Below, one piece after another: positions 20,899-24,420 of a stretch of DNA of 64,000 nt. The DNA comes from Candidatus Omnitrophota bacterium (GTDB taxonomy: Bacteria; Omnitrophota; Gorgyraeia; Zapsychrales; Zapsychraceae). The notes under the pieces are model-generated. The model was not told the origin of the DNA. It did not search any database and worked only from the letters and a program-made list of their open reading frames with translations. Location: NCBI GenBank assembly GCA_015233115.1, contig JADFYJ010000004.1, positions 70,528 through 134,527 of the forward strand, read 5' to 3'. Each line of letters starts with the position of its first letter. Position 1 is the first letter of the stretch. The translations under genes were made by a program, and so were the position numbers.

Positions 20899-20908
20899 GT
20901 CACTTTTT

Positions 20909-21238
20909 TAATGAAAACCCATAAGCCGAGTTCTGTAACCTCTCACGAGGCGATGGTTATTCCACTCACGCCGAAGCTTACGCCCCGGTATCTTGCAGCC
21001 TACCCGGAAATATTAACGCGACGGATCGCCGCGCGTTTGGACAAACCAAAACTCTTTCCCTATTTGGCCTTACTCCATGCAGAGATTGCTCGTTTCACTT
21101 CCTCTTTCAAGGACTCGTCTCTGTAGCTCTAATCCAGTGTCTCCACTGCCTTGCGTTAACAAGGTGCATTATCCTTCGGAGCTCGGACTTTCCTCCCTGC
21201 CGTGTTAAACAGTAGGGCAACCACCCTAGGTTTTCATT
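20909..21238 (-). ncRNA. rnpB: RNase P RNA, bacterial type A
   Basis: The minus-strand reading contains AGGGAGGAAAGUCCGAGCUCC (P4 5' strand), AAGGCCAAAUAGGG, GGGUAGGCUGC and ACAGAACUCGGCUUAU (P4 3' strand). The P1 helix is aaugaaaacc/ggguuuucauu. The 5' end overlaps the rnhA stop by about 13 nt. A 71-aa plus-strand ORF call here is spurious. Confidence 0.8.
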
Positions 21239-21627
21239 TCTTTTATAGACGATGTTGCTAACTTATCGGCGATTTTATTTTTTTCGCGCGGAATGTGCGC
21301 AATCGAAAATTCGGCAATTCCTTTTTTCAAACGAAGAGCTTCTCTGCATAAATTCTGAAGGTTCGCGTTCTTGATCTGATATTTACCGGTAACCTGCTTA
21401 AAAACCAATTCACTATCCGTAAAAATATTGACCTTGTCTGCTTTCATGGCTAAAGCTTCTTTCAAAGCACAAATCAACGCTGAATATTCCGCGATGTTGT
21501 TCGTCCCTTCACCGATATAACGGGAAATTTCTTTGACGACAATATCATCTTTTTTAATGGCGACGCCGATCCCCGCAGGGCCGGGATTCCCGCTGCACGC
21601 GCCGTCAATATATATTTCTAAAATCAT
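21226..21627 (-). CDS. rnhA: Ribonuclease HI
   Basis: MILEIYIDGACSGNPGPAGIG...E..A...AL...DS (DEDD catalytic layout), 133 aa. Confidence 0.85.
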   Translation of the reverse strand: MILEIYIDGACSGNPGPAGIGVAIKKDDIVVKEISRYIGEGTNNIAEYSALICALKEALAMKADKVNIFTDSELVFKQVTGKYQIKNANLQNLCREALRLKKGIAEFSIAHIPREKNKIADKLATSSIKEMKT

Positions 21628-22457: not shown

Positions 22458-22605
22458 TGGTTATCCTTTTTAAGAGTGAAAGGTAAAAAGAAAAATGGGC
22501 ACAGAAGGGCTCGGCGCCTTCGGTCGGCCACCCGCCCCGCAAGCAAGATGCTCCTATTCGTCGCATCTGCGGGGCTCCCTTCGAGCCTTGATACTTTTTT
22601 CAAAA
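22458..22605 (-). other. tRNA-Val 3'-trailer module: a conserved ~75-nt structured element ending in a 21-nt copy of the tRNA-Val 3' end
   Basis: Minus-strand reading gives ...ctcgaagggagccccgcagatgcgacgaataggagcatcttgcttgcggggcgggtggccgaccgaaggcgccgagcccttctgtgcccatttt. The last 21 nt are identical to the tRNA-Val 3' end plus trailer. There is a nested hairpin CCCCGCA/TGCGGGG around GATGC/GCATC, and a T-arm-like hairpin GAAGG-cgccgagc-CCTTC. Confidence 0.6.
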
Positions 22606-22679
22606 TGGGCACAGAAGGGCTCGAACCTTCGACCTCAGCGATGTGAACGCTGCGCTCTAACCAACTGAGCTATGCGCCC
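22606..22679 (-). tRNA. tRNA-Val (anticodon CAC)
   Basis: Minus-strand GGGCGCATAGCTCAGTTGGTTAGAGCGCAGCGTTCACATCGCTGAGGTCGAAGGTTCGAGCCCTTCTGTGCCCA folds as a canonical cloverleaf. Anticodon loop is TTCACAT. CCA is not encoded. Confidence 0.9.
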
Positions 22680-22823
22680 TGAAAAACTATATAAAATCTA
22701 TTTATGGGCCCACAGGGACTCGGCGCCCTTACGGGTCGGCCACTCGCCCCGCAAAACCTGATGCTCCTATTCGTCGCATCTGCGGGGCTCTCTTCGAGTC
22801 CCTTTCTGCTATGAAATTATTTA
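22680..22823 (-). other. tRNA-Met/Ile2 3'-trailer module, homologous to 22458..22605, ending in a 23-nt copy of this tRNA's 3' end
   Basis: Minus-strand reading gives ...ctcgaagagagccccgcagatgcgacgaataggagcatcaggttttgcggggcgagtggccgacccgtaagggcgccgagtccctgtgggcccataaata. The core is more than 85% identical to the Val module. The 3' end matches this tRNA rather than tRNA-Val. Confidence 0.6.
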
Positions 22824-22897
22824 TGGGCCCACAGGGACTCGAACCCCGGACCAAGTGATTATGAGTCACCTGCTCTAACCGCCTGAGCTATGGGCCC
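22824..22897 (-). tRNA. tRNA with CAT anticodon: elongator Met, or more likely Ile2 (lysidine)
   Basis: Minus-strand GGGCCCATAGCTCAGGCGGTTAGAGCAGGTGACTCATAATCACTTGGTCCGGGGTTCGAGTCCCTGTGGGCCCA. G1:C72 pairs, so it is not an initiator. From memory, the anticodon arm GGTGA-CTCATAA-TCACT and variable loop TGGTC closely resemble E. coli tRNA-Ile2. Confidence 0.85.
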
Positions 22898-22912: not shown

Positions 22913-22942
22913 CTTAATTATAGGTTTTTTAGCATATCACAA
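22913..22942 (-). promoter_or_regulatory. Putative sigma-70 promoter for the tRNA pair (minus strand)
   Basis: Minus-strand TTGTGA (-35) ... TATAAT (-10) about 20 nt upstream of the tRNA 5' end. The spacer is only about 14 nt, so this is weak. Confidence 0.3.
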
Positions 22943-23147
22943 GGTTATTTATCTTTCAATATATTTCAGGAAGGAAACAAAAAAAGGATATTCCTGTAAG
23001 TATATGGCAAATAATATGTTATACAAATGAACCTGAAAAAAATATCAGTGTCTAGTTAAAATAGAAATAAACATGCTTATTCTGATAAATTACCCGAATT
23101 CTCACCAACAGTTTTCAAACCAACTATACAAATTATTTTTTATATTC

Positions 23148-23598: not shown

Positions 23599-24420
23599 TT
23601 ATTCTCTTACCACTTTTATCTTTAATATCCCCGACGGACGGACGCCCTGATACGGTAAAGCGTAAACACATTCAATCTCAACTTCTTTGGGAACGCCAAA
23701 ACCCTCCCCTTTAAAAATAGTTGTCCGGGTTTCTCCTGATTTCAAATAAAAATCCTTAATGTCTTTCGCGTTCTCATCAGCCCGTTTAATTCCCCAAGGT
23801 CTCCCTCCATATAAAAAAAATACAGTTTGTTCGTTTAAATCTTTAAACTTAAGCATTTGCCTCCCGGTATTTTTTAACGTCACCTTAAAAGTAATATCTT
23901 CATTTAAAGCATAGACCTCTTTTTCCGGTCTTAAAATTAATTTGTAGGGTAAATATTCCTGTTCCAAATCCCATAATCCTTGGCCAAAATCTTCAACATA
24001 TTTTTCTAAATCAAAAAAACGTTGGCGGCCGCCAGGATCAGTAAAACCCGCTAATTTAATCCCTAACAACGGAAACTCTTTTTCAAAATACCCCTCCCGG
24101 TTGAAAAAGGCGCTTTGATCCGCGGTCTTAATAATTTCCAACCCTAATTCATATTTAATCGGACGGCGCGACTGAGTATCCGCGTATTTATAGACAAAAG
24201 TTTTAATCCCATATTGATTTTTTACCGTCGAAATCTGATCAAAATCATTTAATTCTTTATACACCTTTTTCATTTTAACGATATGGATAAAAATCTGATT
24301 CATCGCCATATTGCACGAAGAAACAGTATCACCGGTAAATTTGAATTCTTGAGCTCTGGCCGTCGTACAAAATAGCAGAAGAAAAAATAAACCACAAAAA
24401 AAATTTTTAAACATTAACAA
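23599..24420 (-). CDS. Hypothetical secreted protein
   Basis: N-terminal signal peptide (LFFLLLFCTTARAQEF). No recognisable motifs. Confidence 0.55.
   Translation of the reverse strand: MLMFKNFFCGLFFLLLFCTTARAQEFKFTGDTVSSCNMAMNQIFIHIVKMKKVYKELNDFDQISTVKNQYGIKTFVYKYADTQSRRPIKYELGLEIIKTADQSAFFNREGYFEKEFPLLGIKLAGFTDPGGRQRFFDLEKYVEDFGQGLWDLEQEYLPYKLILRPEKEVYALNEDITFKVTLKNTGRQMLKFKDLNEQTVFFLYGGRPWGIKRADENAKDIKDFYLKSGETRTTIFKGEGFGVPKEVEIECVYALPYQGVRPSGILKIKVVRE

Follow-up and report, generated by a model that had tools for sequence, protein, structure and literature searches.

Two adjacent tRNA genes in a 64,000-nt stretch of DNA from Candidatus Omnitrophota bacterium (contig JADFYJ010000004.1; the whole analyzed stretch is hereafter called the window) are each followed by a small structured module, and we show that these modules, A and B, belong to a lineage-restricted family of small structured non-coding elements found mostly in Omnitrophota. 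The architecture of the family has the following features: (i) the core is a three-way junction with strong covariation, (ii) it is preceded by a 5' arm antisense to positions 54-65 of the upstream tRNA, and (iii) it is followed by a 3' arm in which positions 56-72 of the same tRNA are repeated in sense orientation, often as far as the tRNA end. The family is apparently undescribed, with no Rfam family or known element matching this architecture; the observation holds, is out of the ordinary and is rated here as an element of a new kind, unexplained by any family that it was tested against. Our best explanation, to which we give a probability of about 0.4, is that the module would be a co-transcribed trailer RNA that provides a second, interchangeable 3' strand of the tRNA and that spreads, or is homogenized, within genomes.

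The locus lies on the minus strand of the window, in the order promoter-like site, tRNA-Met, module B, tRNA-Val, module A, Zn-ribbon gene, RNase H gene and RNase P RNA. Both tRNA genes, tRNA-Met(CAT) at 22824..22897 and tRNA-Val(CAC) at 22606..22679, were identified by ARAGORN and match the Rfam tRNA model at 68.1 and 68.9 bits, respectively; neither of them encodes CCA. Module B (99 nt, 22705..22803) is separated from tRNA-Met by 20 nt, and module A (92 nt, 22496..22587) from tRNA-Val by 17-18 nt. The modules match the covariance model (CM) of the family at 83.3 bits (E = 8e-20; fold z-score -3.8) and 81 bits (E = 3e-19; fold z-score -2.5), respectively, and are the only copies detected by the model in the window. 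A distance of only 213 nt separates them, their cores show 90% identity, and they have a common exact block of 31 nt, for which the chance expectation in shuffles is 0. The claim of an earlier note on this DNA that each tRNA is followed by a spacer of about 20 nt and then by a related structured module is therefore confirmed by ARAGORN, Rfam, the 31-nt block and the core identity.

The 5' arm of module B (IR_L, AGGGACTCGAA, 22793..22803) is the reverse complement of tRNA-Met positions 54-64. It is followed by J1/2 (GAGAGCC), helix P2 (22747-22787) with the invariant tip CGACGAAUAGGAG (22764-22776), helix P3 (22722-22741; GGCCGACCC-GUAA-GGGCGCC) and the 3' arm. This arm (DR2-B, 22699..22722) is a 24-nt exact sense copy of tRNA-Met C56-A73 and the trailer TAAATA; the first copy of the repeat (DR1-B, CGAGTCCCTGTGGGCCCATAAATA, 22818..22841) comprises C56-A73 of the tRNA itself and six trailer nucleotides. 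Module A has the same parts, namely a 5' arm (IR_L, GGCTCGAA, 22580..22587) that is the reverse complement of tRNA-Val positions 54-61, J1/2, P2 (22535-22574, loop 22551-22563), a minimal P3 (22513-22529) and a 3' arm (DR2-A, 22492..22513) that exactly repeats, over 22 nt, tRNA-Val C56-A73 and the trailer TTTT (DR1-A, CGAGCCCTTCTGTGCCCATTTT, 22602..22623). The direct repeats reported previously are thus exact, but their lengths of 21 nt for Val and 23 nt for Met were slightly underestimated, the actual values being 22 and 24 nt; the nested hairpin and the GGCCGACC motif reported along with them are present in the modules.

To delineate the family, we scanned species-representative genomes with a first core pattern and metagenome contigs with a second one. 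The first scan yielded 18 stretches of genome contigs, mostly in metagenome-assembled genomes (MAGs) of Omnitrophota, one of which contains five copies. The remaining stretches belong to MAGs labelled Planctomycetales, Ratteibacteria and Elulimicrobium, and two are chance matches in GC-rich coding DNA. The second scan added 116 stretches. A CM trained on 52 modules detected 147 copies in 121 sources (contigs), again mostly from Omnitrophota MAGs, and did not recover the GC-rich chance matches. Directly behind a same-strand tRNA are 100 of these copies, at a gap of 9-109 nt (median 26), while 11 follow another module in tandem arrays, 16 are located at a contig edge, and 20 have no upstream tRNA detected by ARAGORN, several of the latter being preceded by visible tRNA 3' fragments. 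Further copies abutting tRNA 3' ends and carrying matching end sequences, as anticipated in the earlier note, are therefore found, and this is their context nearly always. The elements vary in size from 92 to 236 nt and occur behind 27 isoacceptors; in the module-bearing contigs, a sample biased toward modules, 95 of 163 tRNAs are followed by one.

Searches for known relatives and associated genes were negative. Scanning of the window and 20 other loci (14 with small modules and 6 with large variants) against Rfam 15, at gathering as well as permissive thresholds (E <= 1 to 10), gave no non-tRNA match covering a module; the gathering-score matches were only tRNAs, RNase P RNA and one 6S RNA, and a weak "permuted tmRNA" match (E = 8.6) was dismissed. 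In the IMG/VR, phage and plasmid collections, no module copy was found and only the tRNA portion of the query matched, and a phage, plasmid or virus origin was accordingly rejected. Full-text literature searches, of incomplete coverage, revealed no earlier description of the element and a single precedent, the theta ribozymes (PMC10879173); together with the Rfam result, this agrees with the earlier note, which knew of no described element of this size with tRNA 3' duplications. The units have no open reading frame (ORF), in line with the previous statement that they lack coding capacity. Clustering of the ORFs within +/-4 kb of about 110 loci identified no conserved neighbor protein beyond local synteny, so that a linked protein partner was rejected, and at the same loci no recombinase, transposase, reverse transcriptase, TnpB, IscB or Cas gene is linked in cis. 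One tyrosine-integrase family is present at six loci (L006, L037, L045, L067, L099 and L122), where the gene is encoded on the same strand and ends 15-30 nt upstream of a module-bearing tRNA, a tRNA cluster or a tRNA 3' fragment. These are probably ordinary island ends upstream of tRNAs.

The relationship between the arms and the upstream tRNA was quantified in 87 non-redundant tRNA-linked modules. Nearly all repeats of at least 16 nt start at C56, and this start is preceded by GGCGC in 70 of the 87 modules, whereas the tRNA has (A/G)GGTT at the same place. In 53 modules, the 3' arm matches the tRNA without any mismatch from C56 up to the tRNA end, and in 72 there are two mismatches or fewer. 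Per-position identity to the tRNA amounts to 0.83-0.96 at positions 56-72, 0.78 at position 73 and 0.7-0.8 at the encoded CCA, and in the trailer it is about 0.6 and falls to 0.45. Copies of tRNA genes without CCA also lack CCA and contain trailer bases, which makes the gene or the primary transcript, and not the mature tRNA, the source of the copy. For the same reason, retroviral-type primer-binding sites and retrocopying of mature tRNAs were rejected as origins of the arm. Among 15 substitutions at positions 56-72, seven are C to T, and in the cases checked by eye (L010 and L089) the partner is G and a G-U pair is kept.

The 5' arm is also specific for the tRNA, its exact complement to the cognate tRNA having a median length of 10 nt versus 5 nt for non-cognate tRNAs. 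Complementarity does not extend beyond the T-stem into the acceptor strand (22.9% versus 25% in the control); a decayed inverted copy of the full tRNA 3' end was therefore rejected as an origin of this arm. The possibility that it is a sense copy of the T-stem 5' strand and T-loop was also rejected, given that tRNAs with the non-palindromic T-loops TTCAAAT, TTCAAGT and TTCAACT are followed by arms with ATTTGAA, ACTTGAA and AGTTGAA, respectively. The 5' arm pairs with positions 56-65 of the copy to form helix P1, and the copy from 66-72 onward is left as a 3' overhang. Thus, the true pairing partner of the repeat is the tRNA-specific 5' arm, which is absent from the earlier note. The T-arm-like hairpin proposed there (GAAGG/CCTTC in module A and AGGG/CCCT in module B) does not hold as a tRNA-specific feature: in 67 members, pairing of the purines ahead of CGCC to tRNA positions 61-65 was no better in cognate than in non-cognate combinations (3.78 versus 3.77 of 5 pairs). 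Such a hairpin can be drawn, but it reflects generic purine/pyrimidine complementarity, and its purine run is part of the conserved RGGGCGCC motif of the core. In the spacers of L016, L023, L034, L093, L099, L104, L113 and L136, a T(A/T)TTAAAGAAT motif occurs immediately after the 3' end of different tRNAs within one sub-lineage, where it may serve in processing or as a promoter-like signal.

In the 5' to 3' direction, the core comprises GAA-(N)-GGAGCC, the long covarying hairpin P2, a 4-nt joiner, and P3, formed by GGCCGACC...GGCGCC and optionally containing a GA-rich inner hairpin. The P2 tip CGACGAAUAGGAG, for which a drawing with two C-G pairs, tandem G-A pairs between them and a GAAUA pentaloop is possible, is invariant, as are GGCCGACC and GGCGCC. 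Reduction of the inner hairpin of P3 to a GUAA or GAA loop makes the window copies shorter than any other of the 65 non-redundant tRNA-linked modules measured, and module A is the shortest. The check for covariation suggested in the earlier note revealed a covarying core: standard pairs occupy 96.8% of the consensus cells versus 82.9% in shuffles, a value reached by none of 500 shuffles, and 164 cells versus 43 in shuffles are changed on both sides of a pair. Controls in which the strands were slid are only 32-44% paired, 12 of the 22 base pairs have double changes, and the covariation score is 0.399 versus 0.143. GNRA-type loops and G-U pairs are formed on the tRNA-sense strand, and therefore the structured molecule is the sense RNA. 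A loop-helix tertiary contact within the three-way junction is probable.

Several other observations concern the core. A GCGAAGC mini-hairpin recurs in P3 of many modules (e.g., L011, L017, L022, L024, L098 and L135); in the form of single-stranded DNA, this sequence has an unusual stability, and this leaves room for a role of the element as folded single-stranded DNA. A 197-nt variant (L014 and L060) contains three CGACGAAU...AGGAG-type motifs, one of them with an inserted hairpin, and the CGACGAAU...AGGAG motif is hence an internal loop, not a terminal one. The copies of the variant behind tRNA-Met and tRNA-Gly share their core and their 5' arm (GGGATTCGAA) and differ in their 3' tails; L052 and L083 were placed with it by CM match length and score only.

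The co-transcription of the module with its tRNA, on which our best explanation relies, is inferred from sequence, because the features downstream of the modules are mostly co-directional and because the only promoter-like site of the window is located upstream of tRNA-Met. The next downstream feature lies on the same strand as an ORF (59 cases), a tRNA (27) or another module (9), and in 16 cases it is a convergent ORF. The promoter-like site (TTGAAA-17-TATGCT with a TG extension, minus strand, 22931..22959) was detected by a consensus scan only, about 34 nt upstream of tRNA-Met, and the same scan of the window gave no such site on the minus strand between the tRNAs and the modules. The site at 22931..22959 is thus a candidate for the promoter of the entire tRNA-module-tRNA-module-gene unit.

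The module would thus be transcribed as part of the tRNA trailer. The 3' arm equals the 3' strand of the tRNA and the 5' arm is antisense to it, and therefore the precursor has two near-equivalent pairing schemes. In one of them, a canonical tRNA would be followed by a closed module, in which the 5' arm would pair with copy positions 56-65 to give P1 and positions 66-72 would overhang. In the other, the swapped fold, the distal copy would serve as the partner of the 5' acceptor and T-stem strands of the tRNA, the 5' arm would hold the T-arm 3' strand of the tRNA itself, and the module would become an insertion in the T-loop. By nearest-neighbor energies, the swapped fold is more stable than the canonical one in all 67 tRNA-module transcripts, by a median of -6.2 kcal/mol; in the unconstrained minimum free energy fold the distal copy is used in 51 of the 67, and the tRNA's own strand in none. 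Both window units share this preference of the family for the distal copy. The module may therefore be viewed as a cis-acting trailer RNA, in which strand exchange would affect the maturation or availability of its own tRNA or of the downstream transcript. The pattern of conservation, with positions 56-72 kept, the discriminator and CCA looser and C-to-T changes frequent, fits the pairing logic, and recent copying gives the same pattern.

A number of points weigh against this explanation. The calculated energies ignore tRNA tertiary contacts, base modifications and the order of co-transcriptional folding, and describe a potential, not a behavior. With TTC being invariant in tRNAs, the likewise invariant GAA that extends the 5' arm to U54/U55 is indistinguishable from a conserved junction motif, and the equal identity of the paired positions 56-65 and the unpaired positions 66-72 could reflect a young age of the copies. 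Terminator-like hairpins between the tRNA and the module in L007, L011, L019 and L073 argue against obligatory co-transcription. Further, the module has no apparent benefit for the cell, and the patchy distribution, genome-specific cores, arrays and rearranged or decayed copies described below fit a mobile DNA element at least as well.

The Zn-ribbon gene served as a marker of the orthologous locus for presence/absence comparison. In a relative with a 60% identical Zn-ribbon protein, the same tRNA-Met/tRNA-Val/Zn-ribbon locus has no modules and the tRNAs are 10 nt apart; across different Omnitrophota, this locus carries no module, a module behind Met only, behind Val only, or behind both. The cores group by genome and not by tRNA, the nearest neighbor being of the same tRNA type for only 12 of 91 cores, and the cores of modules A and B have an identity of 0.90 to each other versus 0.82 to the best module elsewhere. 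Ser, Val, Gln, Ala, Leu, Thr and Trp tRNAs are followed by cores at least 90% identical, of which both arms differ so as to match the local tRNA and the spacers are unrelated; therefore the shared unit is the core, and the arms are local. Similarity within a genome is apparently maintained, through gene conversion of the cores or through duplications in which the arms are re-templated. Modules appear to be gained and lost site by site, and this picture of their evolution is in part shown and in part inferred.

Rearranged copies were found at a number of loci. Tandem arrays are present in L016, L012, L041, L085, L094, L106, L128, L131 and L135. On the minus strand of L128 (1366-1477), a circularly permuted unit occupies an ectopic, non-tRNA site; it starts inside the repeat (..CCG|TCTCCCGCTCCA), continues with the spacer, the 5' arm and the core, and ends with CGAGCCCCG|, an arrangement that is as expected from a unit-length circle opened at a different point. 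In L047 (7206-7306) and L082 (8507-8607), the core, with a weak CM match of 29.5 bits, is inverted relative to the intact arms and the adjacent tRNA-Lys, which suggests inversion across the inverted arms. Decayed or chimeric copies were found in L126, L033 and L061. In L058 (940-1190 and 1240-1760), a module lies within the D-loop of a partial tRNA-Glu, with tRNA positions 1-18 as the 5' flank and positions 22-43 as the 3' arm, upstream of an intact tRNA-Glu; further downstream, a multi-hairpin relative of about 400 nt and a T-loop-type module of the normal kind each come after a repeated tRNA 3' fragment and a terminator. Behind tRNA-Arg(TCG) in L041, arms built by the same logic (GCGGGACTCGAA ... 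CGAGTCCTGCCCGGGGCGCCA, a 21-nt repeat) enclose another core, which is about 150 nt long and lacks the CGACGAAUAGGAG loop, and thus more than one core family may use the arm architecture.

The most serious rival, which we consider rather unlikely, is essentially the main idea of the earlier note, namely a non-autonomous mobile DNA element with a unit of about 100-150 nt (repeat, spacer, 5' arm and core) that inserts at tRNA 3' ends. Insertion would proceed by Campbell-type recombination of a small folded, possibly single-stranded, circle within positions 56-76, or with a long target-site duplication; the recombinase would be encoded elsewhere and would recognize the fold, the hairpin stem of which would imitate the target duplex as in the folded attP of the CTX phage. 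The direct repeats flanking the unit, the four occupancy states of one orthologous locus, the tandem arrays, the permuted ectopic copy in L128, the inverted cores between intact arms in L047 and L082, the near-identical cores behind different tRNAs with clustering by genome, the decayed copies and the recurrent GCGAAGC hairpin, known for its exceptional stability as DNA, all speak for mobility. However, a hopping unit would keep its old arms, whereas both arms are specific for the local tRNA and the spacers are unshared; the repeat is variable in length (17-24 nt and more), with an identity that ends at the tRNA end and not at a fixed distance. About 110 loci contain no recombinase, transposase or reverse transcriptase in cis, the one integrase family lies upstream of the tRNA in an island-like manner, the viral, phage and plasmid collections yielded no copies, and the window locus is purely housekeeping. 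In its simple form, the duplication of an integrase att core leaves unexplained the 5' antisense arm, the bounding of identity to positions 56-72 and the local arms on near-identical cores, and it also sits badly with the absence of copies from the collections searched. The other option of the earlier note, a trailer RNA mimicking the tRNA 3' end, is closer to our findings: the sequence of the strand and its pairing potential are mimicked, but the T-arm fold is not.

A small ribozyme or processing signal in the tRNA trailer is compatible with our best explanation and not exclusive of it, although as an account of its own we regard it as improbable. Such an RNA would play a part like that of the theta (HDV-like) ribozymes, by which phage tRNA 3' ends are trimmed. 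It would either cleave itself, for instance at the junction of the core and C56 or in the spacer, or recruit RNase P or RNase Z, and would separate the tRNA from the downstream RNA or protect the 5' end of the downstream mRNA. Consistent with this role are the compactness and high conservation of the three-way junction, with its invariant junction nucleotides and probable loop-helix contact, the location of the module between a tRNA and a gene or tRNA of the same direction, and the precedent of ribozymes beside tRNA 3' ends (PMC10879173). Against it, no Rfam ribozyme family matched even at E <= 1-10, the modules are 9-109 nt away from the tRNA end while theta ribozymes lie within +/-5 nt, and arms identical to the cognate tRNA have no obvious use in a processing signal. 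Threading by hand onto hepatitis delta virus (HDV)-like, hammerhead and integron attC-like (GTTRRRY) topologies gave no fit either, the helix order being at odds with the HDV and hammerhead topologies tried. A stand-alone guide RNA of the omega-RNA or CRISPR RNA type seems very improbable. It would consist of a scaffold followed by a guide of about 17-21 nt corresponding to the tRNA gene from C56, and an effector encoded elsewhere would home to, or act on, tRNA genes; the TT located immediately 5' of the target in the tRNA gene would resemble a protospacer- or target-adjacent motif, and the GC in the module copy would avoid self-targeting. The sharp boundary between (A/G)GGTT|C in tRNAs and GGCGC|C in 70 of 87 modules, the identity that is high over about 17 nt and then decays, and a scaffold-5'/guide-3' order and size like those of TnpB/Cas12-type guides favor such a function, yet the leading 10 nt of such a guide are taken up by pairing with the 5' arm, the tandem arrays repeat the same guide, and a nuclease aimed at the cell's own tRNA genes would be self-destructive. 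Moreover, no TnpB, IscB or Cas gene is linked at about 110 loci and no IS605-orfB or HEARO match was obtained from Rfam. Finally, the proximity of modules A and B and the 90% identity of their cores would also agree with a local duplication or chance resemblance limited to the window, but the family scans refute this, so that it has next to no probability: there are 147 copies in 121 sources behind 27 isoacceptors, and no chance match to the shared 31-mer is expected.

Comparison with known systems revealed both similarities and differences. Integrative elements and islands at tRNA 3' ends share with the modules a direct repeat of the tRNA 3' part that brackets the insert, an intact tRNA and tandem units; in contrast, the module unit is only about 100-150 nt long, has neither integrase nor cargo, and possesses a second, antisense arm and a covarying RNA-type core. 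Its counterpart of att is not fixed to one tRNA, one core type being found with matched arms at 27 or more tRNA species. Theta ribozymes, which are minimal HDV-like ribozymes of gut phages, are located on the same strand directly downstream of phage tRNAs, within +/-5 nt of the tRNA end, form an HDV double pseudoknot without any tRNA copy, and have been proposed to function in tRNA 3' maturation (PMC10879173). They resemble the modules as small structured RNAs downstream of tRNA genes on the same strand; the modules differ by their greater distance, three-way junction, tRNA-derived arms, lack of a match to the HDV family and chromosomal location in Omnitrophota.

Elements of the CTX phage type, which exploit Xer recombinases through a folded attP, and integron attC sites reproduce the target duplex by an imperfect hairpin and have no recombinase of their own, and integration of Xer-exploiting elements regenerates the target and permits tandem arrays. 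For the modules, by contrast, the target would be the T-arm/acceptor segment of a tRNA, which differs from copy to copy, there is no dif-like or attC-like consensus, and the GNRA loops and G-U pairs point to RNA. Like miniature inverted-repeat transposable elements, the modules are small, non-coding and multi-copy, with terminal inverted repeats, a flanking direct repeat and similarity within a genome. Unlike in these elements, however, their inverted repeats are derived from the target and are not element-specific, the direct repeat of 17-24 nt or more is bounded by tRNA landmarks without a fixed stagger, insertion is restricted to tRNA trailers, and it is the interior that is conserved and not the termini. 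Three-way-junction riboswitches and other cis-regulatory RNAs have in common with the modules a conserved junction core, variable peripheral hairpins and P1 strands with an alternative partner. Here, this partner is the upstream tRNA and not a terminator or a ribosome-binding site, and, atypically for riboswitches, orthologues resemble each other less than copies in one genome do.

The genomic surroundings of the two window modules are those of a housekeeping locus, with ssb, rpoD and dnaG upstream. Downstream and co-directional, the COG1579-type Zn-ribbon gene (PF02591, 21732..22457, minus strand) is a part of the context and not of the element; its start codon lies about 35 nt beyond the end of DR2-A, and the best match of the protein names a Candidatus Omnitrophica MAG. 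It is followed by an RNase H-like ORF (21226-21627), the 3' end of which overlaps by 13 nt the 5' end of the RNase P RNA of bacterial class A (20906-21238, minus strand, 165.5 bits). The order Zn-ribbon gene, RNase H, rnpB, yebC, ruvC, ruvA, scpB and pheA is kept in the relatives L001, L031, L053 and L089. A 273-aa ORF between rpoD and ssb (23599-24420, minus strand) has no Pfam match at E <= 1e-5. At 22570-22600 and 22784-22812 on the plus strand, a GC-rich hairpin with a T-run behind it arises from the sequence complementary to the 5' arm, J1/2 and the beginning of P2. Both hairpins were scored as terminator-like and are oriented toward the antisense of each tRNA; they could stop antisense transcription into the tRNAs or be due to chance.

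A more far-reaching proposal, which we put forward as a speculation with the odds clearly against it, is that the modules are a new genetic element in which a conserved structured RNA core is installed behind tRNAs with both arms written from the local tRNA (antisense 54-65 and sense 56-72). Each tRNA with a module would then be produced as a precursor having two exchangeable 3' strands. The element would constitute a T-loop "pseudo-intron" or strand-swap device that may control tRNA output across Omnitrophota and that would spread by an unprecedented templating, for which template-switching, snap-back copying and recombination of a folded circle are conceivable routes. The CM of the family can be used as an annotation marker, and the strand-swap design may be of interest to RNA engineers. 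If our reading is correct, a sizeable share of the tRNA genes across a bacterial phylum would carry a dedicated structured RNA. This would raise the question of how a core of about 70 nt gains an antisense and a sense copy of any tRNA ahead of it, as well as the question of whether a built-in alternative 3' strand regulates tRNA maturation, tRNA-mRNA processing or tRNA gene stability in these ultra-small, host-dependent bacteria.

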